Positions 4,280 through 35,848 of a stretch of 64,000 bases of DNA are shown piece by piece. The first letter of the stretch is position 1; each line of letters begins with the position of its first letter. A program made the translations under genes and the position numbers. Source of the DNA: Mobula hypostoma (taxonomy: Eukaryota). Under the pieces are notes generated by a model, which worked only from the letters and a program-made list of their open reading frames with translations, ran no database searches and was not told the origin of the DNA. The stretch is from contig NC_086097.1 of the NCBI RefSeq assembly GCF_963921235.1, positions 166,906,001-166,970,000 of the forward strand, given 5' to 3'.

Positions 4280-4312
<33 letters not shown>

Positions 4313-4714: not shown

Positions 4715-4716
4715 TA

Positions 4717-13300: not shown

Positions 13301-13338
13301 TAGTCCTGACGAAGGGTCTCGGCCCGAAACGTCGACTG
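13301..13338 (+). ncRNA. Minimal type I hammerhead ribozyme motif (Penelope-associated)
   Basis: uaguc-CUGACGA-A-GGG ucucgg CCC-GAAAC-GUC-gacug. Conserved core boxes, stem II, stem I UAGUC/GACUG, predicted cleavage after GUC (13333). Confidence 0.8.
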
Positions 13339-14660: not shown

Positions 14661-15833
14661 TAGTAGAAGAACTAGGATGAAGACCTTGCTTCCGTGCCGA
14701 ATAAATCAATTACTCTAAAAAAATGTTGATATATGGTCACCATAATAATGTGTGGTTCCAGCTGCTAGTTTGAGTATAGCAAGATACCACAAAAAGGAAC
14801 AACACCTTCTATCACACCAGGGCAGTCTCCAACCTGGTGCCATGAAGAGAAAATTCTCAAACTTCCTGCAACTATTTCCCCTGTTTTGTTTCCCCTATAT
14901 TTTTTATCTCCTCTGGATCCAACTGCCCTATCACCCTAATCTCCACCCCACCTACCCTCTCCACCTGCACATTACCTACATATTTCACCAACCTCCTTTC
15001 CTTTGCTCCTTGTCCCTACCAGATTCCATCATCTTCCGCTCTTTCTCACTTCTACCTGTCACCTCCCAAATTCTGCTCTCATCTGCCTATCACCACACCC
15101 CTCCCCTTTCACCTGGACACAACTATCACTTTCCATCTCTTGCTCCAACCATTCCCACCAGCATTTCCTCTGTCCATTTCCCTCTACAGATGCAACCGGA
15201 CTTGCTAAGTTCTTCCAACACTCTTACATTGGGTATTTGTTTCCACAGTAACTGGATAATTTGATTTAGTTATGTTGGTTGGAAGTTAACCAACAGCATA
15301 GCAAGAATTGTTCAGCATGTGACAACGCAATTGGGTGTGATCACTGGGGTGACTCATTTAAGACAGAAGTGAGAAGAAATTGCAGCACTCTCTCTGCTAC
15401 ATTTGGCAAGACAGCGTTATTGATGTGCTCACTATTGGGATAGGGTATTTGAACTCCCAGCTGACGGAACAATGTGACTGACATCTGATCATACCAGCAG
15501 CTGTAAATACTTCTGCTTCTGAAATTCAAACTAAGTGGAAAAAAAATGTTTAAAACAATGACATTCAGCAGGACCACAAATCACAAAATTATGCACTCAG
15601 AGAACATTAATTGCAGCATGCGGAATAGTCACATTTCAATCAAATGGCAGGATTCAATTGGAAGAGTCTTCTTGTCACTTTTGCCTCATAACTACATTTT
15701 TGAGTTAACTGTATATATTATATATCATATGTATATTTGTGGTAAAATATTTCCCTTTTTTCTCAAATAATCTGTGCCTATTGCATTACTAAACCATCAC
15801 CAAACCAGGAAAAAAAACACCTAGAAAGATATA

Positions 15834-16657
15834 CAGTGGATTCTGGTAAATTGGAACACACTGGGACTAATGTATTTTGGCCCAATTCAGTGGTTGTCCC
15901 AGTTAGTTGAAGTTTCATCGAAACAGTTTTAAAAAAGTATAAAAAAGACAAATTACCAATTAACTGAGTAACAAATTATGTATTAAATTAAATACAGACT
16001 AAATTAGAACACTAGCAAAACTACTACAGTACTATAAAACTGTATAATAGTTCCTAATAGTTATCAAGGGTGGCATTTATTCAGTGTACACTGATGTGTT
16101 CTTTAAATTGACTGTAAATGAACAAAATCAGTGCAGACAGTGGGCTGCCTTCAAATAGTTCTTTTGATGATTACATTCACCAAATCTTCATTTCAATTTT
16201 AACGTTCAAGATGATTGTTGATATTTTCAAATGCTTCGCAGTTCCTAACTTGTTGGAGTAGTAAAAATGTTTTGTTTTTACTTCTGATCATTTCTGGCAT
16301 CTCTAAGCATGAATGCTTGAAACTGCAGTGAGCAAAACAATTCTGAATTGACTTACTGTTTATTGCTTGCCAACTATCGATGATAAGTATCACTGCTTTT
16401 TGAACACAAACATGCAAGTGACGCCATTTAAAAATTATTCGCTCTAAGCACTGTGTAGTGTCTAATAGCCAAGTGATGTGCACGTGACTACTGCTAGTTA
16501 GAAAATGTTCAACAACAGTCACCCAGCCCAATTAAGAAGCACAGTGTCTCAAATAAATGAAGATAATCGGGTTATTTTCTTTTTTTGTTCTTTAAATGTT
16601 GTCTAACATAAACGGCTGCCCTTATTAACTGATTGCCCAATGAACCGGAATTCACTG
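15834..16657 (-). mobile_element. Tigger/pogo-like DNA transposon, internally deleted
   Basis: TA flanks at 15832-33 and 16658-59. TIRs cagtggattctggtaaattgg / ccaatgaaccggaattcactg. Remnant AVILIIDSWQAINSKSIQNCFAHCSF resembles the pogo transposase C-terminal W...I.NCF...F motif. Confidence 0.85.
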
Positions 16658-17029
16658 TATATAGAAGTACAATTCAATAGATTCAGGGGAAACAATGTGG
16701 CAGTTCACCATAACACAGCTATAATACAACATTTCACAACGTTATGGCTAGTATTGCACATTATTTGGTTACTTTCTTGTAACCTAGAGATGATTATGCT
16801 AAAGCTTCCACTCACCTACACCTTTTAATCTTTCACTATTTGTTTTCCACCATTATTGGTATTGGTAATCTTTCCTACCTCAATTCTCCTTCCTGTTTCT
16901 CAAATTACTTGTTCTTTGTGCATACTGAACACAATAAGTGCACCCTGTTGTCTTCCCTCATTTACTCTTCTGTTCATTTCCCTCACAACTTGTAGAGTTT
17001 TGAAACTCAAGCTTGCTGGGTTTTCAATT

Positions 17030-17592
17030 TTGATTATACCAGTGACGAGAAAGGATGTGGTAACCTGCCACAATGACTACACGTCATAGTACATCTTACA
17101 TCCACTGTGATGAAGTGTTTTGAAAGGTTGGTGATAAAACATGTCAACTCCTGCCTAAGAAACAACTTGGAGTTGCTCCAATTTGCCTACTGGCACAACA
17201 GGTCCACAGTATATGCCAATTCATTGGCTCTTCATTCAATCCTGGACATCTGGACTACAACTATGTCTACATCAGGATACTTTTAATCAACTACAACTTG
17301 TCATTCAATACAACCATTTCCTCAAAACTAATCAATAAGCTTCAAGACATTGGCCTCAATAGCTAGTTGTGTAATTGGATTCTTGATTTCCTCACTTGCA
17401 GACACCAGTCAGTTTGAATTGGCAACATCTCCTTCACAATCTCCATCAGCATAAATGTACCACAAGGCTGTGCGTTTAGCTCTCTTCACACTTTATACTT
17501 ATGACTGTGAGGCAAAGCACAACTCCAATGCCATATTTATGTGTGCTGATTACACCACTCTTGTTAGCTGAATCAAAGCTGGTGACGAATTT
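17030..17592 (+). mobile_element. Rex1/Babar-like RT fragment
   Basis: IIPV..K..VTCHNDY, LTSTVMKCFERLV, LQFAY, PQGC and ADYTT motifs, with frameshifts. Confidence 0.85.
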
Positions 17593-17599
17593 GCAGAAT

Positions 17600-18470
17600 C
17601 TAGATGGCTTTTAAACATTGCTGCCTCAACCTCTATTTCTGGCAGCTCATTCCAAATGCACATCCCCATTTGAATGAAAAAGCTGCATCTGATGTCTCTC
17701 TTAAATTTATGATCTCCTGCACTTAGTGCTCCCTGGGAAAATAGTGCACCCTGCCTATGCCCCTTATGATATTATGTGCCTTCTTGAATCTAAGGTGGGG
17801 GCTTATATGGGAGGCAGGGTTTGAGGGTCGGCACAACATTGTGGGCCGAAGGGCCTGTACTGTGCTGTACTATTCTATGTTCTATGTTTAACTCTATGAG
17901 ATTTGCTAGACATGACTTCCCACCCTGCCTTTCCAAATATTGGTAAATTCTGTCCCTCAGAAGCTTCATTGACAAGCTATCCATCACCAATGTCAGATGC
18001 TCTGATATCTTTCCAATTTTTATAAAACCAGTTCTTATCCTTCTGCGATCGCACTGCTCCACCACTGGTGGCCATACATTCAGATGCCAAGGTCCCAACT
18101 CTGATATTGCCTTTCGGAACCTCTTTAACTCTTTTCCTCTCTTCCGTAAGAAAGAGAGGCAGGAACAGACAACTATCACACTTGCTCTCCTATTCATAGA
18201 CTAGTACAGCATAGGAATAGACTCTTTAACCTACCAAGATGTAAATTAAAACTAACCCCACCATCCTGCCAGTTCACGTGCCTATCTAAATGTATCTCAA
18301 ACGCTGCTTTGCATCTGCTTCCACCACCTCCCCTGCAGCAGGTTTCAGGTATCTACCAATGTGTAAAAATATTGTGTTGTAAATCTTCCTTAAATTTTCC
18401 CCTCCCAACTTAAAGCCGTGCCCTCTTGTATTTGATATTTCCACTCTGGAATAAAGATTCAGACTCTCTA
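17600..18470. mobile_element. Cluster of CR1-like fragments in both orientations
   Basis: Plus-strand 3' end gggccgaagggcctgtactgtgctgtactattctatgttctatg at ~17795-17888; minus-strand GKSCLANLIE RT remnant; minus-strand 3' end at ~18190-18470. Confidence 0.65.
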
Positions 18471-19624
18471 CCTAATATCATTTTATATACTTATTCAATA
18501 TATATTTTACATACTATTCAATAACTCATTATTTATCTTAGCTCTATTATCCTGTACTGAACCCATGTGTCTTGATTATCTTAATATCGAAAACTTCTCA
18601 ATCTCCCTGAATGGAATATGTGCAGCAAGTCAGCATTCACAGCCCTCTTGGGTTAAAACTTCTAAAGATTCATAATCCCATGAGTGATGAAATTTCTCCT
18701 CATGAATGGCCAGCAACTAATCTTATGAGCCTTAGATCTGAGCACTTCAATTGCTGGAAATATCAACACCACACCTACCCTGTTAAGCTTCAAGAACAGA
18801 TGGTATAATTCTAGAATTACCAATATTATCTTTCATTTTAGATTTTTAGTAACTCTTGCATTTTGTGTCTCAAAGTACCAGCATTTTCATTCTTTGGCCT
18901 TTGCTTTCACATCTATCATTTATGTCTGCACTAACTATATTAGCTATTTCCTTGTTTTTTCCTTTACCCCAATGGTCACCCTGGTTCTTGATAAAATGGG
19001 TAAAAGCATAAAACAAAAGAGCATAAGAAAACAGGTCACTCAGCCCTTCAAACCTGTCCCAGCATTCAAAATGATCACTGATCTACACCAGCCCTCAACT
19101 CATTCTCTGACCAAGATACCACAGCCTTTACTTCCTCAATCTTTCAAAACTTCTCAACCTCTACTGTAAATACTTCTCTTGAGCTAGTATCTACAATGTT
19201 TTAGACAGAGAGTTCCAAGGATTGACGAAAGGAGGATTAGGATTTGTCTAACTATCAAATGACAGCAGGTTTGGTTTGAGGAGGAATTAAAATCTGAGTA
19301 AAATTTGGAAGCTTAACTTCACTTGCCTTTGGCAAACAATAAAAACGCTTCATAAGAGTTAACCACGGTGTTTCATTTTATGGAGAGAGCACTGAGCTAA
19401 GACCATTTCAGAGGAAAAAGAAGATAGTGACGTGATAGACACATTGACAGTCATATCTGAAAATATACAAGTCAATGAAACAACTCTTTAATTCAGTAAA
19501 ATTTAATTTACATGCTACAAAATATAAAATATGCATTATTCAATTTTATTTTCTCTTCCAAAACAAACCATGGATTAAAAACCCTTTCATTGTTTAATAC
19601 TAAATGTTGCTTAGGAACAGAAAA

Positions 19625-19870
19625 GCAAAAACTGCAAATGCCGGAAATTTGAGATAAAAATTGAAAATGCTAGAAATACTCAACATATCAGCAGAATTTT
19701 GCAGGAAGAGAACTAGAGCTAATGTTTCAGGTCTGTAACTCCCTCATTCATTCTTATCTATACTATACAGAACTGATGAAGGGCTACTGACCTGAAATTT
19801 AACCCTCTTCCTCTCTCCACACATGTTGCCAGACCTATTGTGTATTTCCAGCACTTTTTGTACTTATTGC
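19625..19870. mobile_element. Old fold-back Penelope-derived short element
   Basis: Left arm aaatgctagaaatactcaaca...aatgtttcaggtc mirrors right arm gacctgaaatttaa...gtgtatttccagcactttt; ctgatgaagg...tgaaa hammerhead relic. Confidence 0.6.
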
Positions 19871-20753
19871 TTAAAAGTAATCCAGAGTTTAAGATTATTT
19901 TCTTCTCTCAGTAAACAGTTGAAGGTTCTGAATTTACACAATACCTAGTTCATTAGTATAGTAGAGAAGAAATCCTCTCACATAGTTTTAAGATAAACTG
20001 ATATTCACATAAAGTCTCGTACATTCACAGCACTGAAAAGTATTAGATGAAGACCTGTAGTGAAAGCAGAGTAAATGGGCACATGAAATGTCAATGAAAA
20101 TGGGGTTGGGGAAAATGGGGTTAGGGTAAGTGGTTCCAACAAAGAAATCTAACCAAATCATTGGTCCTTCAGTCCCTTCCTATTCTATAACAAATTGCTG
20201 TAAGTTAAAGGCTACAATAATATATACTATTGGGCCTTTGAGCTTTCTCTGCATGAAAATGATTACATGCTATTATTGACTTGTTGGTAGTCCAGAGCAT
20301 GGGATTAGAAATCTACATCACAAAAAACACTGACGTTTCCCACCTTATGTTTGAATTTAATTGAGGAGATGTGAAGAGAGATTCTGCGCTAAAATGTGTT
20401 AGAGACACTGTCCTCTCTTCAAAGTAAGTCTGCATTCTGTCAGTGAATCTGAATCTATCTAGTCAATCTAGATGTGTTCTCTTTTTCAATACTGATAGAT
20501 TAATTGCCATAAATTGTAACAAATCTGCAAATTATAATGATCTATTTATTGTATAAATGTAGTATACAAATAAAACAAAATTAATTTGCAACAGATGCTG
20601 AGTTAGGCAGTTGATAATCAGAAAATTCATCATCCTGTGTATATTCCCCTAAAATGGACTGTTCAATAACCTCAAGCAATACACTGTAAAGACACAGGTG
20701 CAATTTTTTAGTTTTCTATTAACGCGATAACAATAGCAATAACAAATACTCAC

Positions 20754-20796
20754 CTTTCAAATCCTAACTGTCTGAAGGTCTTTTCCCAATCCGTAC
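20754..20796 (-). CDS. Internal 43-nt coding exon of an unidentified host gene (phase 1 to phase 2), peptide (x)TDWEKTFRQLGFE(S/R)
   Basis: Minus strand reads ggttgtgttttattttattag|GTACGGATTGGGAAAAGACCTTCAGACAGTTAGGATTTGAAAG|gtgagta. It has a T-rich acceptor and a consensus donor, only one of three frames is open, and it lies in non-repetitive sequence. Confidence 0.75.
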
Positions 20797-21443
20797 CTAA
20801 TAAAATAAAACACAACCTAATTAATTCTGATAGTCATTATGCAGAGGATTCAATAAAATGCAATACAAACCAAAATAAAAATACCAATTTCAAAGCCTTG
20901 TGATTATGTGGCAAATTGCCCTTCTATTCTTCTCATAAATATAAATTCCATAGTACACCTTTGTTAGTTCCCTAATATACTACCAATACAATTGTTCTAA
21001 GTACTCCCTTTTGTTGCTGCAACTACCAAGAAGATTAGTGGGTATATTTAAATTGCTTCAAGATACCTAACAGGCTGTTTGTTTGTGAAGTATTATAGTA
21101 GCTGTGCTTATTCTCTGTGTTTGCTGCATGTCTACTTTTGCCTTCGGCAGCAGTGCAGAATGGTTGACAGCTACATCTTCTGCCTAGCCAATTACATTTT
21201 CTGAAAAGCAATAACACTGCAAATGTTCGAATCTGAACCAAAAACAGTAATGCGGGAAGAACTCAGCCCATCAAGAATCATCTGTAGAAAGAGAAGCCAG
21301 TTAATGCTTCTTCAAAACTCAGTTACATTTATAATCTCATGCATCAGGCAAATGCACCCCAGTTGGTATCATCTAATCAGCAAGGTGTCATCAACTAACT
21401 TTCACTTGGATTTGTTTCATCGGCCTGAGTATTCACATATATT

Positions 21444-23215
21444 CTTTTTCAATATTTTTATTGATTTCTATATAGAAGAATACAGAGTCTAAGAGAATAC
21501 ATACTATAAAACAAAAGAAAAAATATAATAATACCAGATACAGTATATTGAATCACATTAACGAACTCCTTACTCTATATTCAGAGAGATTAGATTAATT
21601 CGCATATTAGAATATAAACAATTTTATTAAAAAAAAGATCTACACCCACTACCAAAGTCGAAGCTGTTTGGGAAAAAAAAGAAAAAAATCCTTATCGGAT
21701 AATAAAATATGCTATTAACCAACTTCTATACTTTAACGAGAAGTCAAAGATTATGAAAATAATTTCAAAATGGCCCCCACAAATTTTGAAAATCTTGGTT
21801 AGGTTCAGAAACTGAACAACGAATCTTTTCTAAATTTAGGTATGCAGTAACATCCCGTAACCACTGAACATGATTAGGTGGAACAGCAACCTTTCATTTA
21901 AACAAAAGCGCTCTTCTAGCCATGAGAGATAAAAGCCAGAATGTGCAGATCAGATGCCTTCAAAGTGATATCTTTCCTTCCAACAATACCAAATAGGGCA
22001 GTCAAAAGATTAGGCTTAAAATTTACTTTAAAGAGTGCAGAAAAATTTGGAATACTTCCTTCCAATATTTTCCAAGACTTGGACATGTCAAAAACATATG
22101 AATAAATGAAGCTTCTCCATTGTTACACCTATCACAGTAGGGAGATATATCCATATAAAAATGAGATAACTTATCCTTGGTCATATAAGCCCTATGAACC
22201 ACTTTAAATTGTAAGAGGGAATAATGAGCACATAACGATGAAATATTAACCAATTTAAAAATTTCATTTCAAGTTTCTTCAGAAATTGAAATCTGTAAAT
22301 CCTGTTCCTAAAGATTTTTGATTTTGTCTAAAGAATCATTTCTTATTCCCAACAACATTTCAGAAATATTGGATATTGAACCATTATAAAATGATTTCAT
22401 ATTAAGAATTTCATCTAATACGTTCTTATCAGGTCTATTAGGAAATGTATATAATTGAGATCGCAGAAAATCTCTAATTTGTAAGTACCGAAAAAATGGG
22501 TTTTTGGTAAACTATATTTAGTTGACAATTGTTCAAACGAAGAAAGACTTCCTCCAACAAACAGATCCCGGAAACATATAATGCCCATCCTTCCCATTGT
22601 TTAAAAAAACTACATCAGTCATAAAAGGCTTAAAAAGATCATTTTAAAAAAGTGGGACTAGAAAGGGAGAATCTCAATAAACAAAAGTGTTTTCTAAATT
22701 ATATCCAAATCCTCAAAGTATGTTTGACTACCACATTTTCAGTTATCTTACTTAAGGATAAAGGAATTTACTTTATTAAATTATATAAAAAGAACATTAT
22801 CAAATTGGTCGTCCCTTTCGTTATCATTGATTGGTCGAATTAATTCTATTAAAATGAATGTTTTACCTAAATTTACATACCTCTTTCAGGCTTTACCCGT
22901 TTTTATCCCTAAATCCTTTTTTGACTCTCTGGACTCTATTTTATCCTCCTATATATGGAAAAATAAACGTCCTCAATTGAATAAAGTCCATCTCCAGAAA
23001 GTTAAAAAGAATGGAGGTTTAGCTTTACCAAATTTTAGGTTTTATTACTGGGCAGCTAATATACAGAATCTCACATTTTGGTTATACTATAATAACCATG
23101 AGGACTATCCCGGGTGGGTTTCTTTAGAAGCTAACTCGGCTAATAAATTTTCTATCATCCCTCTTTTGGGATCTCCACTTCCTTTATCCTTAAGTAAGAT
23201 AACTGAAAATGTGGT
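21444..23215 (-). mobile_element. L1-clade LINE, 5'-truncated, with inverted 5' segment (22767-23218 on +)
   Basis: Minus-strand ORF2 C-terminus (QFKVVHR, CDRC...HMFLTC). Plus-strand segment IGRINSIKMNVLPKF...GGLALPNFRFYYWA. 16-bp TSD agtattcacatatatt at 21428-21443 and 23216-23231. Confidence 0.93.
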
Positions 23216-24195
23216 AGTATTCACATATATTAAAATGCTTAATTTCAAATTTGCCAGTTTTATTTTGCCCTCAAGCTTAAACATTTTCTTGAATACTTGG
23301 ATGTCAAGGACAGCTATATCCAGTTTTTGCAAAGCACCATTTTTTTTTGTACAAGATTTCAAAAACAATGTTGGCATTTACATCTTCACTTTTGATGAAA
23401 GCACGCTGACATTTGGAAATTTGAATAGAAATTCTTGTTTAATTATGATTTTGAATTTCCTGCATTGTAGCAGTGGCTTCACTTCTTGGCACTAAAATGC
23501 TCTGGAACTTTTTGAAAGGCATTAAAGGGATGCTACATATTTGCAAATCTTTCTTTGAAACATGCTCTCTGCAGCATTTTTCTACACTACTCTAACTGTA
23601 GTCCATTTCTACATAATCAGAACAACAATAGGTTGAGTACAAAACTAGAGCCACTGAGTGTAAAAATAACACCTTTGCTCACTTTGTTCGCATCGACCAT
23701 CAATAAACCTTCTTAGATTAATTCCAATTAACACTTGGCCCAAAACCTACAATGTCTTGACTATTCAAGTGCTGATCTGGGTGCTTCTTAAATGTAACTG
23801 TTGCTACCACGTTCTCACTGTCACAACCACGGATTTGGCAGCGCAGTAGATAAGGCAATTGAGCTTGTGAATTTGCACGTGTCAGGTAATTATTATTTAA
23901 TAGTGATAGTATTTAACTCCATTCTTGTCGTCGTAGTGCTTGTCGAGATTTGGACAGAGCATAGCAACGCTTCACTGCTGTTTTGTATTTGGCGTTCCCT
24001 GAGATGTTGGACTTTCAAATCAACTGACGCTGAAGACTAGCGGTATTCGTTTAATGTTTAGATGTTCTTTTCAGCCCCAGTGCAGGCTTCGTTTTCCTTT
24101 GAGAGTTTTAGTTAATGACCCTGTTTTGGCCTAGCGTTTATTGTTTTATTTTCCCTTTAACAGGTCAATAGTTCCCAGACTTTAATATGAACAGT

Positions 24196-24730
24196 TTCTC
24201 TGCTCTCCTTTTTCTTCTTTCTAGGATGTGCATCTTGATCTAGGGAAGGCAAATTTAAATCATTGGAGTATTCTCTATTTAATCGTTCTATTGCTCCCTT
24301 TACAATCTGATCTCTCCTCTTAGTTTCCCGATCCGCAACATCACCTGACAAATCCTCTGTTTTCACATCTCCAATGATAACTCTCTTTTTAACTTTGTAT
24401 TCATCCAGCCTTTGCATCTACTTTTACAAGCAGCTTTTTGTCTCTTATTCATGCAATAACCTGAATAGATTCTGGTCCATTATTCTCACAAAAGCCAAAC
24501 GCATGCAGCTTTTCTGAAGCTCCTTGAACTCTCTTCCAGTTTAAAACCAACCCACATTTCACAGGTAACTGCCTTATTAACATATCATAAGCTTTCTCAG
24601 ATACTTTGCCTACAAAATTTGTTCTAGTCTGACCACTGCTTTCATCTCTGTCATGATTCCTCTGAGCAGCATGGTTCTTCCTCGGTCCCATATGCTTTCT
24701 AACCAGAGGCAGAGGGGCTGGCACCAACAC
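24196..24730 (-). pseudogene. RBM25: Processed pseudogene (retrocopy) of RBM25, RRM domain and following region, with frameshifting deletions
   Basis: Translations VGKVSEKAYDMLIRQLPVKCGLVLNWKRVQGASEKLHAFGFCE, KKLLVKVDAK and ETKRRDQIVKGAIERLNREYS...HPRKKKKE match the vertebrate RBM25 sequence I recall (VGNISEKASDMLIRQLLAKCGLVLSWKRVQGASGKLQAFGFCE...ETKRRDQMIKGAIE...HPRKKKKE). The segment is continuous with no introns. Confidence 0.92.
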
Positions 24731-24769
24731 CTGTTTACCCTCTGTTGGGCAATGGTCCTTTCTCCTTTT

Positions 24770-27700
24770 TAAATCTTTTTATTTATTTTTCAAAAGTTAT
24801 AAACAAAATAACAATGTTGATACAAAGAGATTGGAATATTGTTAATAAACATATACAAAAAAGATTTCAGATAACACAGGTATAGTAGACTTCCAAACTC
24901 ATGATGCAATTAATCATAAAAAAGAAATAAAAAGAAAAAAACAAAGAACCCCTCCCACCAAAAAGAAAAAAAACGAAATACTAAACCCAAAAAAGCGAAC
25001 GGAACAAAACAAGGCTAGTCCAATATCTAAAATCGAACACCTTCAGTAATGCCAACAACTTTGCTTCTCTATTCATATATTTTAAGCTAATAAGAAGGAT
25101 TCAGAAAGGTCAAATTACATCATATGAAAATGTTGAATAAATGGTTTCCAAGTTTCTTCAAATTTAACCGAAGGATCAAAAATATCACTTCTAATTTTTT
25201 TTAAATTTAAACATAACATAGTTTGGGAAAACCATTGGATTGTAGTTGGAGGACTGGTCTCCTTCCAGTTCAATAAAATAGATCTTCTGGCCATTAAAGT
25301 AACAAATGCAATCATCCGACAGGCTGAAGAAGATAAAGATCTATGTTCTACCATTGGCAATCCAAAAATTGCCATAATAGGATGGGATTGTAAATCAAAA
25401 CACAGAACTGTTGAGATAATATCAAAAATATCTTTCCAATATTTTTCCAAAAGAGGACAGGACCAAAACATACGAATTAAAGAAGCCAACTCAGAGTGAC
25501 ATCTGTCACAAAAAGGGTTTAAATGGGAATAAAAACGGGCTAATTTATCCTTAGACATATGGGCTGTATGCACTACTTTAAATTGTATTAACGTATGTTT
25601 AGCACATATAGAGGAAGTACTGACTAATTGAAAAAAATTATCCCATTCTTCTATAGGTAGGCAAAGTTGAAGTTCCCTTTCCCATTCATTTTTAAGTTTA
25701 TCAGATATACCTGGCTGTAATTTCATAATTATATCATAGATAGATGCTATTAATCCCTTCTGAAGAGGATTTAAACCTAAAATTTTATCAATGATATCAG
25801 TAGGGTATGAGGTCGGAAAGGTAGGCAACATAGTATTTAAAAAATTTCTTATTTGTCAATATCTAAAAAAATAGGATCTAGGCAAATCAATTTCTTAGAT
25901 AACTGTTCAAAAGACATGAAACAATTATCCAGAAATAAGTCACGAAAACATGTTATACCTTTCGTTTTCCATATCAAAAAAGGCTTGGTCCATAATCAAG
26001 GGTTAAAAAAAAATAGATATAATAGGGCTTGATAATATAAATTTGTTCAAACCAAAAAATTCAGAAATTGAAACCATATTCGCAATGTACAAACGAATGT
26101 TTAACTATTGGATTAACCATTTGTTTATTCAATTTAGATAGTACAAAAGGAAGTGAAGTTCCTAAAATGGAAGCTAAAGAGAACCCTTGTACAGAGTCGC
26201 CTTCAAGGTTTACCCAACATGGGCTTGGAGTTATATTCCAATCTTGTGTCCAAAATATTAAATATCAAATATTAATTGCCCAATAATAAAATCTTAGGTT
26301 AGGCAGTGCTAAACCACCATCTTTCTTGGACTTCTGTAAATATTTTTTACTTAATCTGGGATTTTTGATCTGCCATATATAAGAGGAAATTTTAGAATCA
26401 ATACAGTAGTATCAAAAAGGGATTTAGGAATAAAAATTGGTATCGTTTGAAATAAATATAAAAATTTAGGTAAAATAATCATTTTAATAGCATTAATTCT
26501 GCCAATCAGTGATAGAGACAATGGGGACCACTTAGTAATCAGTTGTTTAACCTGATTAATTAATGGTAAAAGATTGAACTTGAATAGATCCTTATGTCTC
26601 TTAGTAATTTTAACTCCCAAGTAAGGAAAATAGTCAGTAGTCACTCTGAATGGAGAACATCTATAAATGAGAACCTGCATATTTAATGGGAAAAGTTCGC
26701 TCTTACCTAGATTCAGTTTATATCCAGAAAAACTACTAAACTAAGCAAGCAAAATTAACACTGCGAGAATAGATTTTCCCAGGTTAGAAATATATAATAG
26801 TAAATCATCTGCATATAGTGATAATTTATGAGTGTCGTTTCCATGGGTGATGCCAGATATATTAGGGGAGTCACGAATAGCAATAGCTAGCGGTTCCAAG
26901 GCAATATCAAATAGTAATGGACTAAGAGGGCAACCCTGCCTAGTACCACGGAATAAATGAAAAAAAGGGGATCTTTGATTGTTAGTAAATACCGAAGCCA
27001 AAGGAGTACGATATATCAGTTTAATCCAAGATATAAATATCGGACTAAAATTAAATTTCTCAAGGGTATTAAATAAATATGTCCATTCAACTCTGTCATA
27101 AGCTTTCTCAGCGTCTAATGAAATAACACATTCTGGAATTCTGGGTGAAGGAGTATAAACAATATTCATTAATCTCCTAATATTAAAAAAAGAGTAACGA
27201 TTTTTAATAAATCCAGTCTGATCAGCAGAAATAATTTGAGGTAATACATTCTCCAATCTCATTGCCAATATTTTAGAAAAAACCTTAGAATCCACATTCA
27301 ACAAAGATATAGGCCAAAAAGATGCACATTCAGTAGGATCCTTAGCTTTTTTAAGAATTAGGGAAATAGAAGCTCAATAAAAATATTGTGGTAATTTACC
27401 TATAGATACTGCATCCCTAAAAATTCTACATAGCCAAGGAGTCAGTGTATTAGAGAAAAATTTAAAAAATTCTACTGTATATCCGTCTGGACCAGGTGCT
27501 TTACCTGAGTTCATCGAAAGAATAGCATTTTTTATTTCCTCTACCGTAATAGGTACGTCTAGTTTTAAATGTTCATTAGATGATAATTTTGGAATATTCA
27601 ATTTCTTTAAACATTCATGCATTATAGTGGAGTCATCAGGAAATTCTGATTGATATAAAGAGGTACAAAATTCTTGAAAGGATATATTTATCTCGTCATG

Positions 27701-28130
27701 ATCAACCGTCAAAGTGTCATCTTGTTTACAAATCTTAACAACCTGTTGCTTAACTGAGGCCGATTTCAATTGATTAGCCAATAGTTTCCCAGTTTTATCA
27801 CCATGTATATAGAATTGACTCTTAGTTTTGGTTAATTGACTTTCAATTGAAGATGATAGTAATAGATTATGTTCCATTTGAAGATCAACTCTCTGTTTGT
27901 AAAGCTCCTAATTAGGGGCTATAGAATATTTCTTGTCAATTTCTTTAATCTTGTCAACCAGTTTAAGTATTTCATTATTAGTTCGCTTTTTTAATCCAGC
28001 AGTGTATGAAATAATTTGTCCACAAAGAATGCTTGAGAAGTATCCCATAGTGCTCCACTGGAAATATCCTCTGTAGAATTCGTTGTGAAGAAAAAATTAA
28101 TCTGTTCCTCAATAAATTTGACAAAATCCG
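24770..28130 (-). mobile_element. L1-clade LINE, 5'-truncated ORF2 (RT and C-terminal CCHC region) plus 3' UTR
   Basis: KAPGPDGY, QTGF, SLDAEKAYDRVEW, GTRQGCPLSPLLF, LYADDLLLY and CDRC...MFWSC motifs; A-rich 3' end near 24770; many frameshifts. Confidence 0.95.
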
Positions 28131-28132
28131 AT

Positions 28133-31035
28133 ATACCAAGAGCCCAACAGTCTTTTCACAAACTTTCCAGAAGGACTTGGCAGATGTAGTTTTGCCATCT
28201 CAATCCACGCCCCTGCAATATGTAGATGATCTACTTTTATGCTCTCTGGATCACCAAGTTTCTTAACAGGACTCTGTAGTGCTTCGTTGGGCCCTGGCTG
28301 ACAAGGGCCACAAGTTGTCAAGACAAAAATTGCAGCTTTGTCAACCCAAAGTGCATTATTTGGGCCACATCTTGAGTGGGATCTGCCACCTACTTTCTGA
28401 CAAAAGGATGAGGGCCATTGTCAGTTTGCCCAAACCATTCCTCAAGAAGGACCTTGTCCACTTCCTGGGTATGACCAGGTATTGCCGATGGTAGAACTTA
28501 ATCAACTTCGGGACCTTGCTTCACCATCAGCTCCAAAGTCAAAGTTCAAAGTAAAATCTGACCATTTGAAGTGGTCGACTGAAGCCAACAGGTCCTTTAC
28601 AACTCTCATAACTGCACCAGCCCTCGGACTCCCAGATTATGGTAAGCACAAGACCAGAGCTTTTTCTGAAGCAGTACTTACTCAACAGCATGACAACGCC
28701 TCTTGTCCAGTTGCCTATTACAAGACTCAACTGGACCCTCTAGCTCAAGGTTATCCTGATTGTTGAGAGCTGTGGCTGCAGCCTACCATGCAATAAATTT
28801 GAACATCAAGTCCTAGTAGCTCTACTCTTACTCTACTCTCAAAATCTGACTCTGGGCTACACGTGCCTTGTGTTGACTCCACTTCAAAATTATACAATTT
28901 CAGTGTGATGCACCAGAGGCCAAAAAGATTTCATGACTAAAGCACACTGTGTACAAGACTCTCAGGGCCTCTGGTATCACCCTAATGGAGATTTTGTGGC
29001 CCTCTCCGCTATCCTCCCTCCACCCCTCCCCCCCCACCCCACCAGCTTACCTGTATGGTACATGATCTGACACATGCAGGAAAAACAGAATGATGGGTAT
29101 GATCAAAAATGAGTGATGTGTGCCAGCCCTTGCAGCCTTAGTGAGAAAAGTAGTGGCAAATTGTATGATTTGTCAGAGGCATAATCCTGGAAAATCACTG
29201 CTGGTACCAGCCGCTGTTGGACCCTCCCCTGGGGACCTTTCATGCATCTCCAAATGGACTTCATGCTATTACCTAGATGCATGGGCTATAATTATGTGCT
29301 TGTCATTTTGTATTTGTTTCCTCAGTGAGTAAAAGCATATCCAGTTCATAGAAATGATGTGATAACTGTCACTAAATGCTTCTTACGAGAATTTATTCCT
29401 AGAAAAATGATCTAGTACTTTCCCAGCGTATATGATGAATTAACTCTTCTAATGGGCTTCCTTATGGGTTTGTGGATGGTATTAATCCAGTATTTCTTCA
29501 GGATCCTGGCAATCTTTCCAGAAGCTGTAGAAATATAAGGAAGACTGCAGTAGTGATGGGTTCCTCCTCGTTGTTAGGCTTCTGGTATTTCTATCTGCCT
29601 CATATTGACGTACTTCCTCTATAAGGGGAACTACTGTGAGCAAACGGATGGAGTGGCCATGTCATCAGTAATTGCTAATTTCTACATGGAAGACTTTGAG
29701 GAGTGGGCCCTGAGTTCATAGTCCTTATGAGCCAAATGCTTCTTCAGACACATCGATGACACCTTCATGGTGTGGCCTCAGACTGCAGCACTCCAACAGT
29801 TCCATGACAGTATACATTCACACATTTAAATTACGATGGAGATGGAGAAGTGATTGCCTTCTGTTCTTGGGCATTCTAATATGACGCAAACCAGACAGTA
29901 GCCTCGGACATGGCATCTATTGGTAATTCACTCACATGGACTTATACCTCAACAATAACAGCCACCATCACACCTCCCAATGTAGAGCGGTTCTTACTAC
30001 TTTGACTAACTGTGCAAGAACTATTTCAGACCCAGAGGTTCTCTCTGAGGAAATAAGATGACTACGCATGATGTTCCTACAGAATGGCTACAAGGAGAAG
30101 GAAATCAGTCAGGCCCTTAAAAGGGCTGACGGGAAAAGCAAGAAACCTAACAACAAGGAGGAACCTGGCGTTATCCCGTCTTCCACAAACCTGTAAGGAA
30201 GCTCAAATCACAGCTTACACGGAGTCAAAGACGGCTTGGGACTTAGATCAGCTGGCATTTACAGGATTGCCAAGGAGTAACATATATCTGCTAGACGAGC
30301 CACACGATAGAAATCAAGAAGCACAGGTGCATCATTTGGGTTACCCAGAGAAATCGGCAGAAGCAGAACTTTGCATTCACAATGGCCATAGGATTGACTT
30401 CAACGGCACAAAACTACTGTGCCATGCCAATGGCTTTTGGGACTGCCTGGTAAAGGAAGCTATTGAAATAAAATTGGAGGAAAAGAATTTTAACCAAGAT
30501 GAAGATCTCACTCTTAAGTAAGAACTAGAATTCCATTGTAAACAAGATGGGAAAGTGGAAATCTGATTGGATGAGGACTAACCAATCAGGAGGAATGGAC
30601 GACAGGGGTATAAATACCACCAGACTAGACATATCCAGGCATCATCCCTGATATAGATGGCAGAGTCTGTCATCGAAACCTCGGTTATAATCGACACCTG
30701 CACCTTGCCTGCAAAGTATGAGATGTTACCCACCGAGATCTCCTCAGGGATTATTCCGAGGTTTGGAATTCCTGAAAAGATCTCGAGGGACAACAGCTCA
30801 CACTTCACAGGCAAGGTAATACAGGAACTAATGAAAGCCGTACAGTGTACGCACGATTTCACCTCTCCTAACCACCCTCAATCTGTTGAAGCAGTTGAAT
30901 GAGAAAACAGGGCCCTGAAAGGCAATCCGGCTAAATTGTGTGAGGAAACTGGACTAAGGACTAAGAGGCACTTCCACTGGTGATCATGACAGTGCGCTGC
31001 ACTCCAAACTGTGTAACGGGACTATCTCCGCACGA
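28133..31035 (+). mobile_element. pol: Class I (gamma/epsilon-like) ERV pol remnant, RT to integrase, split by a Penelope insertion at ~29403-30710
   Basis: SPTVFSQ...LQYVDDLLL, GHKLSRQKLQLCQPKVHYLGH, FLGMTRYCR, APALGLPDY, PVAYY..LDP.AQGYPDC, integrase HDLTH...CMICQRHN, HLQMDF, IIPRFGIPEKISRDNSSHF, HPQS..AVE, TGLSPH. Confidence 0.93.
29403..30710 (+). mobile_element. Second Penelope-like family (Poseidon/Penelope-type): RT, GIY-YIG tail and pseudo-LTR, with an inverted piece at ~29403-29630
   Basis: EQTDGVAM, IANFYMEDFE, FRHIDDTF, THMDLYL, KEAIEIKLEEKNFNQDE motifs; ggggtataaatacc; degenerate hammerhead ctgatata-gatggcag-agt-ctgtcatc-gaaacctc at ~30648-30682. Confidence 0.85.
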
Positions 31036-31039
31036 CTAG

Positions 31040-31262
31040 TCCCATGTGCTTGTCAGCCACTCCTCGGTCAGGCTGCTGGGTGTGCTCTGGAGGATTATAC
31101 ATTCAGAAGGTGGATTGCAATTGCAGCCTATACCGTGAATCATAGTGAGTTTGATTCTGCGCTGTACGTTGATAATGACACTAAAACTGTAAAGGGAGCG
31201 TGGAACTGCAAGGCAAGAGATTCGACTAAAAACATTACTTATAACATCTTTACTGAAGCAAA
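31040..31262 (+). mobile_element. env: ERV env SU remnant
   Basis: tgc tgg gtg tgc = CWVC at 31074-31085, then across frameshifts HSEGGLQLQPIP and NHSEFDSALYVDNDTK...WNC...KNITY with three N-X-S/T sequons, directly after integrase. Confidence 0.75.
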
Positions 31263-31264
31263 TT

Positions 31265-32030
31265 GTGGTGAATTATCACCACAGACAGTGCGGAAGGAGG
31301 TAGAGGCGAGGCTGGTCTGGGGGGTGAGCTGTGCTGAGGCATTGCAAGGCGCAACGTGTTTGAGCCAAGGTCGCAGATGGAGTTGGTATCGCTGCCGGAG
31401 ATGGAGTGAGTGATTTAGAGAGGAGTAGATGCAGAAGAGTTTCGATGCCCGTCCACCTAACCTGGGTGTGAGGTTGGATTGCTCCAAACACTGAGGCAAT
31501 TTGGTGGGATCGAGAATGGCTTCAGGCTTTGTGGCCCAAGTGTATCTTGGCGCCAAGGTCTGGGTCCTAGAGCAAGTCACTACCCAGTGCTTGGACAGTT
31601 TAAATGCTGGCACAGATAGACGGGAAGCCTGAGTGTCAGGAATAGGGGCAAGGATTGAGCTGATTTCACTCGCTTTCCGCAAATATTCATTTCTTTCTCC
31701 ACGGTGCTGAGGCTACGAACTGATCGGTCTGTTGTGTGTTTTTGCTCCACTGGCATGGTGAACTGTGGCCGAGGCTTGAGACCACTCTGGCTGCTCTGGG
31801 AGCAGATCTGGGGACTCAGTCTGTTGCAGAATGCTGTTGGTTTTGCTTCTGTTGTTTGGATGATTTAGTTTTTTCCCTCTATTTCTCTGCCCAGTGGTTT
31901 TTGATCTTCCTTTTTTTTAAATTGTGGTTTTCAGCTGTCTTGCTTTGTGGCTATCTCTAATTAGACAAATCTCAAGGTGTGTAATTTAAACACTCTTTGT
32001 AATAAATGTGCTATGCATCTTTGAATCTTT
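31265..32030 (+). mobile_element. Non-autonomous retroelement with LINE-like 3' tail inserted in env
   Basis: GC-richer body ending in aatctcaaggtgtgta...aataaatgtg...ctttgaatctttt, a tail also seen at ~34045-34205. Confidence 0.55.
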
Positions 32031-32032
32031 TG

Positions 32033-32150
32033 TTGGCCTAGGGGGATGGTACATGTGCTATCATTGGCCAGAAGAGTTGCACGTACATCCTTGATATGTT
32101 CAAGAATATCACCAATTTAGCTGTATGCATCTGAGTAGAAGCTGATAACT
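32033..32150 (+). mobile_element. env: ERV env TM remnant
   Basis: Frame from 32033 reads LA*GDGTCAIIGQKSCTYILDMFKNITNLA: end of the immunosuppressive region plus a CX6CC motif with one Cys mutated (agt tgc). Confidence 0.8.
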
Positions 32151-32336
32151 GAGAGTGATTGAGAGTTGTCATATTCCTTTTAGTCTCTTGCCTGAGGTTG
32201 CTCTGTGGAATGTTGGCCTGCGGAGCAGCCATCTCCAACACGACATAACAGCCAGTCACCCCTGATGAAACTGTCAGAGTTTCAGAGGCTCTGTGTTATT
32301 GAAGTTCAGTAAGATTTATGTTGTCCTCTACAGGAC

Positions 32337-33220
32337 AAAGAGGAGGGAGTGTGGAAGTTGCAGTAAGGCAAAGGTAGGCTGAGGCAGTTGTAGACAAGAC
32401 CATAAGACCATAAGATTTGGGAGCAGAATTAGGCCACTTAGCCCTTCATCATAACAGATCCATTTCCCTCTCAGCCCCAGTCTCTGCCTTCTCCCATGTC
32501 CCTTCATGCCCTGACCAATTAAGACTATCAACCTCGGCCTTAGATATACGTAAGGACTTGACCTCCACAGCCACCTGTGGCAACAAATTCCACAGATTCA
32601 ACACTCTTATGGTTAAAGAAATTCCTCTTTATCTCCATTCTAAAAAGATGCCCTTCCATTTTGAGGCTGTGTTCTCTGGTCTTAGACACTACCATACAGG
32701 AAACATCCTCTCCATGTCCACTCTATCAAGTGAGGCTTTTGAAGTGAGACCACTGGAGACATCTCTGCTGACTACAGGTGGGTAAGATTATGCCTGTATG
32801 TACTCAAGCCAAATGAGTGAGCCTCTTTAGAGAGACTTTTCCAGAAAGGTCTCCCTAAAACAACGTCCTTTTACACAACAGCAGGTGCTGGAGGCAGATG
32901 AGATAGCAGAAGGATGGAAGCATACCCAACAGCTAAGGCTCTATTGTCTTTACGAATTTCAAAATATCATTGGCTGTCTGCTTGAAGTTTTGATTGACTT
33001 TAACATTCTCTGTTGTGAATATCAGTAAGGAAGTCATACATATACAATAATCACCATCCATAACTGTTAAGCCAATTCTGTATAAAAATAGAAGTTTTCT
33101 GTTTGGTTTCAGAACAGTATGGGTGGCAGGGTCTTACGCTGCTCTCCTTGTGCACAAGTAAAATAAAAAAGAATGCTCGAGTCCTAAGTCTGAGTTCGTT
33201 CTGAGCCCAATTATTTTCGT
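32337..33220 (+). mobile_element. Putative polypurine tract and 3' LTR of the ERV, interrupted by CR1
   Basis: aaagaggagggag (32337-32349) followed by TGtgg; ccaat at ~33072, tataaaa at 33081, aataaa at 33162. No second LTR is present to confirm it. Confidence 0.45.
32397..32730 (-). mobile_element. CR1-like LINE 3' fragment
   Basis: (accataag)n tail and reverse complement of the CR1 3' UTR and VNLW-like region. Confidence 0.8.
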
Positions 33221-33636
33221 TTAGTCAGCTCCTTCATGGGTACCAGCCTCCATTATATCCAAGACATCTTCAAGGAGTGGTGCCGTAAGAAGGCAGTGTC
33301 CATCATTAGAGATTCCCACCACCAAGGACCTGCCGTGTACACACTATCATCGTCAGAACGGAGATACAGAAGCCGGAAGACACACACTGAGCGATTCAGG
33401 AACAGCTTCTTAACCTCTGACATATGATTTCTAAATGGACATTGAAGCCACGAACAACACATCACCACATTTCTGTTTTTCTTTGCACTGCTTATTTTAA
33501 CTTAACCATTTGATAAATGAAAAATGTAACTCGGGTTTTTCTCTATATTTATTTATCATGTATTTTATTGTACTGCTCCCATAAAGTTAACAAATTTCAT
33601 GACATATGCCAGTGATATTAAATCTGATTCTGATTA
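33221..33636 (+). mobile_element. Rex1/Babar-like 3' fragment
   Basis: GTSL..IQDIFKE.C.KKA.SII.D.HH...RRYRS..T.T.RFRNSF; gattct tail; similar to 5470-5906. Confidence 0.85.
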
Positions 33637-34334
33637 TTGATGACGGTTTCTTTGACAATCCATGCTTACTCCTCAAAAGTTAATGAGAAATTTTGTTGTA
33701 AAAGTAATTTATTTTTTGTAGATTCTTTTAAGGGTCAGAAAAAAAATCCACAGTTGCTACCAGACCTTGATGTCTTCCTGTATTTTTGCTTGCATTTCAC
33801 CATCTATATTCTGAATGTTGTCAGATGTTTCCACAGTGACTAAGCACACAAACAGATTTGGGAAGCTGACTATTCAATTGCAAAATGGCCTGGCATGACT
33901 TGGTACACATATTTGGACACATCTAAGTTGGAATTGGACAAAAATCTGCTCCTGCAAGTCAAAAAAATAACTGCAGATGCTGAAAATCTGAAACAGAAAT
34001 AGAAAATGCTGAAGGTCAGTCAACAAGGCAGACGGCATCTGCGGGTGATCTTTTTACATGACTTGTTTTTTTTCCTTCTCTGCACATTGGTTGTTTGATT
34101 TTGTTCGATTGGGTTTCTTTGCTCTGTGGCTGCCTGTAAGGAGATGAATCTCAAGGTTGTATACAGTAATCATATTTTGATAACAAATGTACCTTAAACA
34201 TTGAAAAAGGAACAGGGTTAATATTTCAGTTGAAGATTTTGCACCAGAATTTCTGATGAAGGCCCCTCAACCAGACTTGCTAATTTTGTTACTTCTACAA
34301 CAGATGGTCCCTGACGTGCTGAATGTTTAAAGTG

Positions 34335-35848
34335 CCTATAGGAAGAGGTACAGTCGATGTTTCAGGCCGAGACCCTTCGTCAGGACTAACTGAAAGAAGA
34401 GATAGTAAGAGATTTGAAAGTGGGAGGGGGAGGGGAGATCTGAAATGATAGGAGAAGAAGAGGGGGAGGGATGGGGCTAAGAGCTGGAAAGTTGATTGGT
34501 AAAAGGGATACAAGGCTGAAGAAGGGAGAGGATCATGGGATGGGAGGCCTTGGGGAAAAGAAGGGGGGAGGGGAGCACTAGAGGAAGATATAGTGAGAGG
34601 GGCAGAGGGAGAAAAAGGAGAAAGAAAGGGGGAAAATAAATAAATAAATAAGGGATGGGGTAAGAAGGAGAAGAGGTGCATTAACAGAAGTTAGAGAAGT
34701 CAATGTTCATGCCACCAGGTTGGAAGCTACCCAGATGGAATATAAGATGTTGTTCCTCCAACCTGAGTGTGGCTTCATCTTGACAGTAGAGGAGCCCATG
34801 GATGGACTATCAGAATGGGAATGGGACGTGGAATTAAAATGTGTGGCCACTGGGAGATCCTGCTTTCTCTGGCGGACAGAGCATAGGTGTTTAGCAAAAC
34901 GATCTCCCAGTCTGTGTCGGGTCTCGCCAATATATAGAAGGCCGCATCGGGAGCATCGGACGCAGAATATCACACCAGCTGACTCACAGGTGAAGTGTCG
35001 CCTCACCTGGAAGGACTGTCTGGAGCCCTGAATGGTGGTGAGGGAGGAAGTGTAAGGGCATGGTGTAGCACTTGTTCTGCTTACAAGGATAAGTGCCAGG
35101 AGGGAGATCAGTGGGGAGGGATGGGGGGGGGGGGGACAAATGGACGAGGGAGTCGCGTAGGGAGCGATCCCTGGGGAAAGCAGAAAGGTAGGGGGGAGGG
35201 AAAGATGTGCTTGGTGGTGGGATCCCGTTGGAGGTGGTGGAAGTTATGGAGAATTATATGTTGGACCTGGAGGCTGGTGGGGTGGTAGGTGAGGTCAAGG
35301 GGAACCCTATTCCTAGTGAGGTGGCGGGAGGATGAGGTGACAGCAGATGTGCGTGAAATGGGAGAGATGGGTTTGAGAGAAGAGTTGATGGTGGAGTAAG
35401 GGAAGCCACTTTCTTTAAAAAAGGAAGACATCTCCTTCGTCCTGGAATGAAAAACCTCATCTTGAGAGCAGATGCGGCGGAGACGGAGGAATTGTGAGAA
35501 GGGAATGGCATTTTTGCAAGAGACAGGGTGGGAAGAGGAATAGTCCAGGTAGCTGTAGGCCTCCCGTTCCATGATCCTCTCCCTTCTCCAGCCTTGTATC
35601 CCTTTTGCCAACCAACTTTCCAGCTTTTGGCTCCATCCTTCCCCCTCCTGTCTTCTCCTATCATTTTGGATCTCCCCCTCCCACTCTCAGATCTCTTACT
35701 GTCTCTTCTTTCAGTTAATCCTGACGAAGGGTCTCAACCCAAAACTTTGACTGTACCTCTTCCTATAGATGCTGCCTGGCCTGCTGCATTCCACCAGCAT
35801 TTTGTGTGTGTCGCTTGAATTTCCAGCATCTGCAGATTTCCTCGTATT
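34335..35848 (-). mobile_element. Neptune-like Penelope element: long minus arm (RT C-terminus, GIY-YIG, 3' region; 34335-35556) plus inverted 3' end (35557-35848, +)
   Basis: YLDYSSSHP..CKNAIPFSQFLRLRRICS and FTCESAGVIFCVRCSRCGLLYIGETRHRLGDRF..H. 14-bp TSD tgaatgtttaaagt at 34320-34333 and 35849-35862. Hammerhead motifs at ~34351-34388 (-) and ~35716-35752 (+, degenerate). Confidence 0.93.

Follow-up and report, generated by a model that had tools for sequence, protein, structure and literature searches.

Remnants of a probable class I endogenous retrovirus with a gamma-type envelope, interrupted by nested insertions

Organization of the element

Pieces resembling pol, env and an LTR are interspersed with transposons at positions 28130-33219 (+) of the window, the whole 64-kb stretch of DNA that was analysed. 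The question is whether they derive from one provirus, and of what kind. The region is very probably a dead class I endogenous retrovirus (ERV) of the gamma/epsilon supergroup, falling outside the MLV-like cluster, which once had a covalently linked envelope of the gamma type; the host is a vertebrate, probably a fish. What is left of the provirus is its 3' half, in a decayed state, with pol, SU, TM, polypurine tract (PPT) and LTR following each other on a single strand (Table 1). This order, proposed in an earlier note made from the sequence alone, is borne out by the positions of the motifs: the pieces of pol keep the linear order of intact class I pol, and env-like pieces, PPT and LTR signals lie downstream on the same strand.

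The earlier note obtained the proviral order by removing the insertions, and set the loss of gag and 5' LTR at the junction with an L1 element (28129/28130). The order holds and both parts are absent, but the losses are wider, and the insertions are not the sole damage, because pol also lacks RNase H (~0.65 kb) and the C-terminus of integrase, and env is for the most part gone. Stop codons interrupt 5 of the 6 coding pieces and every frame is broken; the locus encodes no working protein, and the copy most likely drifts neutrally. None of the marks of an intact provirus (5' LTR, PBS, gag, protease, RNase H, open frames) was found, nor was a second LTR copy within the 64-kb window. Rfam has no match in 26000-35000, scans of viral contigs returned 0 loci, and no RNA dataset is among the listed runs that carry the locus.

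Table 1. Features of the provirus remnant, its insertions and the adjoining L1
Feature	Position	Strand	Remarks
L1-type LINE, 5'-truncated, neighbour outside the provirus	24780..28129 (left end approximate)	-	Pfam RVT_1 E 2e-34 on 26351-28129; depth in thousands
RT, C-terminal palm and thumb	28130..28518	+	YVDD at 28219; lacks N-terminal half; one stop before a change of frame
RT connection (tether) domain, frameshifted	28515..28905 (right end approximate)	+	MLV/XMRV RT match
Integrase N-terminal zinc region and first part of catalytic core, frameshifted	28910..29402	+	Integrase_H2C2 E 0.0014, below Pfam curated cut-off
Penelope-like insert, truncated, rearranged, inside integrase core	29403..30750	+	10-bp target duplication; weak RVT_1
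Inverted copy of integrase sequence 30767-30817	30702..30752	-	right end of Penelope-like insert; 40/51 identical
Integrase core, second part; breaks off, C-terminal domain absent	30751..31040	+	Pfam rve E 0.0024, below Pfam curated cut-off
SU remnant	31068..31281 (right boundary uncertain, 31210-31285)	+	CWVC at 31074, then open stretch in other frame, 3 sequons
Non-autonomous repeat between SU and TM remnants	31285..32023 (may begin near 31210)	.	repeat depth, in-window likeness
TM remnant	32024..32245	+	end of immunosuppressive region, C-X6-S-C, sequon 32105, hydrophobic stretch from 32165; 4 stops
PPT, 13 purines, TG directly after	32337..32349	+	10 such tracts on + strand of window
3' LTR-like segment, ~530 nt without CR1	32350..33219	+	TATAAA 33081, AATAAA 33162; end cut or decayed
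CR1-type LINE 3' fragment inside LTR-like segment	32396..32735	-	copies elsewhere in window; depth >70000; repeat edge at 32396

The pol region and its deletions

A YVDD RT and an integrase, the latter recognised by Pfam in two pieces, are present in pol as the earlier note stated. The connection domain follows RT and integrase comes last, as in retroviruses. RNase H is absent after the connection domain, where no RNase_H Pfam match occurs in three frames; measured against the spacing in the intact pol ORFs of related loci L001 and L003, the gap leaves pol ~650-700 nt short. The RT-to-integrase distance lies below the retroviral norm because RNase H is missing, which counts against a provirus.

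The left integrase piece matches residues 566-647 of L001 pol (E 8e-12). On L003 pol it ends at residue 958, and the right piece corresponds to residues 955-1023; the 4-residue overlap across the intervening insert fits the target duplication, made by 10 bp at 29393-29402 and 30751-30760 (9/10 identical). The insert, which we take to be Penelope-like from RT and GIY-YIG motifs, matches RVT_1 weakly (E 0.06 at 29629-29868) and carries an internal inversion, marked by opposite-strand joints in contigs. No description of an inverted copy of the target flank was found in the accessible portion of the literature on Penelope flank inversion. A protein search with an integrase piece gave no relative (0 of 1 candidates), the first integrase piece has a single, unrelated match in the PDB, and PDB integrase matches do not discriminate among retroviral groups.

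Traces of the missing 5' half were sought in the window. With 151 ORFs of related loci, tblastn found nothing better than E 0.016 outside 28132-30956, and Pfam found nothing on the + frames of 15001-26400, a search so insensitive that it also missed the visible L1 piece. A motif-like stretch near 24700, considered as the RT N-terminal half or gag, was discarded, as its PDB matches are all unrelated.

A second contig of organism A spans the RNase H gap, with 34 differences and 12 gap letters over 28159-28966, and continues upstream for 594 letters unlike L1. This would be expected if the deleted form, devoid of RNase H and with a short env, were a defective subfamily copied in trans, or else a segmental duplication. 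Such an origin, compatible with the class I provirus favoured here, is rather unlikely: the contig is a single one, shows neither flanks nor LTRs, and may come from a divergent allele or from a duplicate of this locus.

Envelope remnants, PPT and LTR-like segment

The CXXC motif of SU is found as CWVC at 31074. CW[VIL]C occurs by chance in 16 of 20000 shuffles of 30960-31290. When the frame of CWVC is aligned to the env fragment of L001, the motif falls on CWIC, and 1 of 992 controls does as well. The accompanying sequons of the earlier note are present at 31138, 31174 and 31231 (at least three are found in 11 of 2202 control pieces), but they lie in a frame other than that of CWVC, and the third may belong to the following repeat. 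The sequon frame has no similarity to the L001 env fragment (652 of 992 controls equally good). The stretch 31039-31281 has 0 matches among 1.84 billion representative proteins, and draws only unrelated Atlas leads, all under 0.9. The repeat next to it has a depth above single-copy, and resembles 34058-34190 at its 3' end (68%); unique contigs break at 31239.

In TM, the motif GTCAIIGQKSCTYI starts at 32048, with its first Cys at 32054. The sequence is the one given in the earlier note, where CXXC plus CX6CC is said to define gamma-type envelopes, but its spacing is C-X6-S-C, and CX6CC is not literally present. Of 20000 shuffles, 5 contain the pattern G.C..[IL]G...C, which was written after the motif had been seen; the six-frame translation of the window contains it once. 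With each of the three intact gamma env ORFs used, the TM piece aligns on the CX6CC region (7-16 of 2973 controls equally good), and its 30 PDB matches at E<=10 are all viral envelope glycoproteins, for the most part GP2 chains, with syncytin-1 in addition (best E 0.022). A lokiretrovirus reading, implying a measles-like fusion protein, was set aside because of these GP2/syncytin-type matches. Hydropathy reaches 2.54 at 32165 in the TM frame, and 95 of 1356 controls reach 2.0. The first TM Cys is 94 codons from the PPT; in three intact env, the stop comes 106-117 residues after the corresponding Cys. Just the last residues before the Cys motif are left of the immunosuppressive domain, heptad repeat and fusion peptide, the rest being replaced at the insert boundary.

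The Pfam TLV_coat model, suggested in the earlier note as a check, gives no match in 32033-32149 nor in three frames of 31980-32400 (E<=1). The miss is weak evidence, because the model also misses the 172-aa L001 env fragment, yet matches L002 env at E 4e-151. A protein search with the TM piece returned no candidate, and intact gamma env ORFs have no tblastn match in the env region of the window. Each env piece is weak alone and none is significant, but descent from a gamma-type env is supported: on sequence grounds the remnant appears to resemble this type by descent, and is not classed by the CX6CC motif.

PPT and LTR-like segment are present as the earlier note stated, with TG directly after the PPT and with TATAAA and AATAAA in the segment. 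The latter lacks a terminal CA and ends with TTTTCG against a repeat starting at 33221. PPT, TATA and polyA signals occur at matching spacing at 1 site on the + strand (the 32337 PPT) and 1 site on the - strand. Depth is ~115-230 at 32820 and 1450-1830 over 32908-33174, versus ~10 for unique contigs. The fragment lodged in the segment is presumably CR1, as judged from motifs in its translation. Order and motifs fit an env downstream of pol followed by PPT and 3' LTR, each piece being weak alone and the LTR a single one.

It is improbable that pol stems from a class I ERV while the SU-like stretch, the LTR-like segment or both are unrelated repeats found downstream by chance. This would explain a sequon frame without detectable homology, the climb in depth from ~20 at 31073 to ~150 at 31164 (run X1), and an LTR lacking the terminal CA and a 5' LTR for comparison. 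However, CWVC, TM motif, hydrophobic stretch, PPT with TG, TATA and polyA signals, all on one strand, follow each other in the order and at the distances expected, and a paralogous contig of organism D has TM tail and PPT together. A point against a single provirus is that no paralogue contig among those listed links pol with env, or env with the body of the LTR.

Class assignment

The RT piece matches Pfam RVT_1 (E 6e-6), and is 37-43% identical to intact class I pol ORFs and 35-44% to the class I RTs of the RT comparison. PDB matches at E<=10 number 14; those to XMRV/MLV RT (4hkq, 4mh8) have E 4e-16 to 5e-16 and 62 bits, versus 15.4 bits for 8r0s and 14.4 for 7ksf/7kse, presumably caulimovirus and foamy RT, respectively. 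By similarity rather than by a rooted tree, the piece is closer to MLV RT than to any non-MLV RT (62 versus ~15 bits or less). Among PDB matches at E<=10, 28545-28769 matches MLV/XMRV RT exclusively (E 2e-6). RT match, connection domain and pol colinearity uphold the assignment to class I ERVs, and not to Gypsy, made in the earlier note. A protein search with the RT piece retrieved 1 relative among 66 candidates. In an unrooted RT tree, which includes no named epsilon reference, the piece falls outside the MLV-like cluster, beside L001 (support 0.80).

A Gypsy/Metaviridae LTR retrotransposon with an env-like gene, in which one RNase H-like domain separates RT from integrase, is a highly improbable source: only one such domain is found there (a weak RT_RNaseH_2 match, E 0.14), but it aligns to the MLV connection domain, the RT has the class I identities given above, no chain named Ty3 RT is among the 14 PDB matches although the PDB contains a Ty3 RT structure, and in this comparison RT and RNase H are not closest to Ty3/Gypsy.

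Copies in other organisms and age

The copy is old, because its nested junctions are also spanned by contigs from three other organisms, with 2.1, 4.6 and 8.4% differences (the last in organism D). A contig of organism B crosses the L1/RT junction; those of C and D begin to match at 28130, and extend beyond it on the L1 side by 276 and 280 letters unlike L1, respectively. Over 28102-29169 and 30772-31038 pol depth is 23-285 in 3 of 4 runs, far below that of the LINE; one bin reaches 2014 (run X9).

A class I virus would have entered the germ line by integration. The copy would then have shed RNase H together with the C-terminal part of integrase and the bulk of env, and received the Penelope, non-autonomous and CR1 inserts; the majority of losses and inserts probably predates the split of organisms A-D. 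L1 may have come to adjoin RT later, in the A/B lineage, the 5' half being no longer adjacent. Tentatively, the locus could be an orthologous class I ERV with gamma-type env, common to different genera or families of rays or sharks, maybe within an RNase H-less, env-truncated subfamily spread in trans. If so, the minimum age that it provides would be among the oldest obtained directly for such retroviruses of cartilaginous fish; no usable nuclear substitution rate was found in the literature. Should organisms A-D span genera, the locus gives a minimum age of the lineage and the insertion order of four transposon families. As a dead copy of a described kind it has small mechanistic value, and modest value as a datable fossil.

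Comparison with known elements

The provirus is an ordinary new member of a described kind, and a dead one. Fish, cartilaginous fish included, are known to carry class I ERVs that are epsilon-related and have a gamma-type env (10.1101/2021.11.23.469661; PMC4422223). The term poorly sampled lineage, used in the earlier note, is overstated, as a catalogue of gamma-type-env ERVs covers 6 genomes of cartilaginous fish, of which 3 have >500 copies (10.1101/2021.11.23.469661). In the accessible portion of that report, by Chen et al., orthologous elements of cartilaginous fish are within one genus only (Chiloscyllium), and undated. No study of the present element was found in the literature on ERVs in rays.

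The ERVs-GTE of anamniotes described by Chen et al. (10.1101/2021.11.23.469661) resemble the present copy in layout, with class I pol and, after it, an env that bears CXXC, an ISD/CX6CC-type motif and a membrane anchor, the last being putative here; the present copy is in contrast fragmentary, and its TM reads C-X6-S-C. CmiERV lineages II/III of the elephant shark (Han 2015, PMC4422223), compared by description only, are epsilon-related ERVs of a cartilaginous fish in which env likewise lies downstream of pol, and LTR divergence puts their age at tens of millions of years; they differ in being near-complete with two LTRs. MLV/XMRV RT and the MLV-like loci L002-L046 are alike in YVDD RT, connection domain, integrase order and TM cysteine region. 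RT identity with these loci is, however, just 35-39%, whereas they share 73-80% with L002; the nearest relative found is L001, with 44% RT identity. CWxC lies deep in MLV-like env (residue 334-368), but at residue 111 in the L001 env frame.

Organization of the element

The element at 28130-33219 (+ strand) is a real but decayed class I endogenous retrovirus (ERV) fossil with a probable envelope (env) remnant, of a kind already known. The YVDD, CWVC and TM motifs, the purine tract and the LTR-like signals claimed by the earlier note were each found at the expected position, and follow one another in proviral order on the + strand. Stops are found in five of the six pieces, which are spread over three frames; the element no longer functions. 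A comparison set of 50 retrovirus-like loci was obtained from 203 candidates in a metagenome scan, and the window is colinear with their intact pol ORFs, as shown in the Table for the MLV-like locus L003.

Table. Features of the element and their coordinates in the window.
Feature	Position	Strand	Basis
L003 pol residues 310-438	28132-28518	+	alignment to intact pol ORF
YVDD (RT)	28219	+	motif in translation
L003 pol residues 438-527	28515-28763	+	alignment to intact pol ORF
L003 pol residues 902-958	29236-29403	+	alignment to intact pol ORF
L003 pol residues 955-1023	30750-30956	+	alignment to intact pol ORF
CWVC (SU)	31074	+	motif in translation
TM motif	from 32048	+	motif in translation
Polypurine tract (PPT), 13 purines, then TG	32337-32349	+	sequence
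TATAAA	33081	+	sequence
AATAAA	33162	+	sequence

L003 residues 527-902 (375 codons, RNase H motif at 640) are represented in the window by ~470 nt only, a shortfall of ~650 nt relative to L003, and of ~700 nt relative to L001, another locus of the set. No RNase_H Pfam match was found in the window's frames there; the L001 pol does match. The two integrase pieces share a 4-residue overlap in L003 coordinates, which fits the 10-bp target duplication (9/10 identical) around the insert at 29403-30750. Integrase ends near 31040 and CWVC starts 34 nt further on, so that the integrase C-terminus and the env start have been lost. Besides the insertions described in the earlier note, the element has lost these regions, RNase H and most of env.

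Affinities of the reverse transcriptase

Compared with PDB chains, the RT piece (28132-28494, stops as X) scored 62 bits to XMRV/MLV RT, and the runners-up were far behind: 8r0s (15.4 bits), which we take to be a caulimovirus RT, and 7ksf and 7kse (14.4 bits), presumably foamy RTs. No chain named as Ty3 RT is among the 14 matches at E<=10. Residues encoded at 28545-28769 matched solely the MLV/XMRV connection domain (4/4 hits, E 2e-6), and a Gypsy assignment is rejected on this match and the RT scores. An unrooted tree with 22 RT pieces places that of the window outside the MLV-like cluster (35-39% identity), next to L001 (44% identity, support 0.80).

L001, the closest relative found and separate from the MLV-like loci, resides on a metagenome contig, and features within 2057-5426 both an open class I pol (892 aa) with RNase H and MLVIN_C and, downstream of it, an env start with an N-proximal CWIC. 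The epsilon-like placement initially suggested is plausible for a fish, because the gamma clade is reported from amniotes alone in the available text of PMC6001957.

The probable envelope remnant

Both CWVC and sequons, described earlier as marks of SU, are present, but the three sequons lie in a different frame from CWVC. Shuffling the SU stretch 20000 times gave CW[VIL]C in 16 cases, and the six frames of the window contain this pattern 4 times. When the CWVC frame is compared with the env fragment of L001, it falls on the CWIC there (1 of 992 controls equally good); against three MLV-like env, 9 to 53 of the 992 controls did equally well. The sequon frame has no similarity to any of these four env, and no homologue elsewhere was found in protein searches; its density, 3 sequons per 58 residues, was reached by 11 of 2202 control pieces. 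Four sequenced sources, organisms A to D, have assembled contigs matching the window. Since unique contigs of A and B stop at 31239, and one of C departs from the window sequence at 31210, the insert between SU and TM may start near 31210 and contain the third sequon.

The TM motif reads C-X6-S-C rather than the CX6CC announced, and the Pfam TLV_coat model, proposed as a check, gave no match on the TM stretch. With 3/3 intact gamma env ORFs tried, out of 25, the alignment of the TM piece covers the ISD end and CX6CC (7-16 of 2973 controls equal). Its 30 PDB matches at E<=10 (best E 0.022) fall without exception on viral envelope glycoproteins; GP2 chains make up most of them, and syncytin-1 is also included. 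The hydrophobic stretch that comes next in this frame is weak evidence, a hydropathy of 2.0 being reached by 95 of 1356 controls. The first TM Cys is 94 codons from the PPT; in intact env, 106-117 residues separate it from the stop. Taken together, these pieces, none significant alone, are likely to be the remains of an env with gamma-type ancestry.

At 32148-32164, contigs in 4/4 runs compared skip 15 nt, which points to TM paralogues that differ slightly in length.

The LTR-like segment

PPT with TG, TATAAA and AATAAA mark the segment as LTR-like, but it has no terminal CA and abuts a repeat starting at 33221. Such spacing of these signals occurs at one + strand site, in this element, and one - strand site in the window, where a second copy of the segment is absent. 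Summed contig depth is ~115-230 at 32820, 1450-1830 over 32908-33174 and 20-30 at 33190 (unique contigs, ~10); depth, which is not copy number, suggests that LTR-like copies outnumber internal ones.

Nested inserts and neighbouring repeats

The window is a repeat-rich eukaryotic stretch, with short repeats reminiscent of those in ray genomes. Motifs in translation are the basis on which we take the inserts at 29403-30750 and 32396-32735 to be Penelope-like and CR1-type, respectively. The former gave only a weak Pfam match (RVT_1, E 0.06). Its 5' part (29403-29600) repeats part of the insert's own body in reverse orientation, with 29559-29591 as the mirror of 30133-30165, and opposite-strand joints were seen in 4/4 runs compared. 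At its end, 30702-30752 repeats in inverted form (40/51 identical) the integrase segment that immediately follows the target duplication, and is spanned by contigs of B, C and D. This may be target flank copied via fold-back or template switching at insertion. In their available text, PMC11167929 and PMC3846280 report inverted pLTRs and 8-10 bp duplications, and describe no inverted copy of target flank.

Two further L1 fragments lie back to back at 21430-23200 (~21430-22600, - strand; 22728-23200, + strand), and resemble the L1 at 24780-28129 (70-72%). Long inverted repeats are found at 10312-10793, 13044-13362 and 59327-60749 (arms 137-219 nt, 91-95%); the last pair flanks 985 nt and is possibly a DNA transposon.

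Conservation in other genomes and age

Parts of the stretch were found in 20 runs from 11 studies, and four runs, one per organism, were compared. Organism A is probably the window's source, because 6/8 contigs listed are identical to the window, and hence provides no independent evidence. In B, C and D contigs span the left (records 20, 29, 10) and right (records 22, 30, 11) Penelope junctions, the integrase-to-SU join (records 22, 31, 11) and the insert-to-TM join (records 23, 32, 13). Judged by these shared nested junctions, the element is probably orthologous in the three organisms; none of the contigs listed links the LTR to host flank. Paralogues are represented by record 2 (organism A), where the contig spans the gap left by RNase H, and by record 14 (organism D), which carries the TM tail and PPT.

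Among B, C and D, the L1 junction is spanned in B only. In C and D the match of the contigs starts at 28130, beyond which they carry 276 and 280 letters unlike L1, as read from record coordinates; L1 therefore looks younger than the element, unless these contigs are paralogues. Differences from the window are 69/3316 (2.1%) in B, 96/2108 (4.6%) in C and 277/3297 (8.4%) in D, counted on 7 of 8 listed records per organism (records 17, 26 and 14, L1 or paralogue pieces, excluded). PMC4422223 quotes two rates, 2.2e-9 for mammals and, as an assumption, 2.2e-10 for shark; by these, 8.4% would correspond to an age within a wide range, from about 19 to about 190 million years.

History and known relatives

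Homology, piece order, target duplication and shared junctions are established. The history would have begun with germ-line integration of a class I virus whose envelope had covalently linked SU and TM. The provirus would have undergone internal deletions and nested insertions; L1 would have arrived later, the 5' half being lost or displaced.

Epsilon-like ERVs are a major class in fish (PMC4977317), and epsilon-related ERVs carrying pol and env are reported in elephant shark (Han 2015, PMC4422223). Chen et al. (10.1101/2021.11.23.469661) describe ERVs bearing gamma-type env from 6 cartilaginous fish, along with pairings of epsilon-related pol and gamma-type env. About a fifth of the envs in that study show variant Cys motifs, and 46 orthologous groups are recognized within Chiloscyllium. 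The lineage of the element may already be within the data of the supplements of that study.
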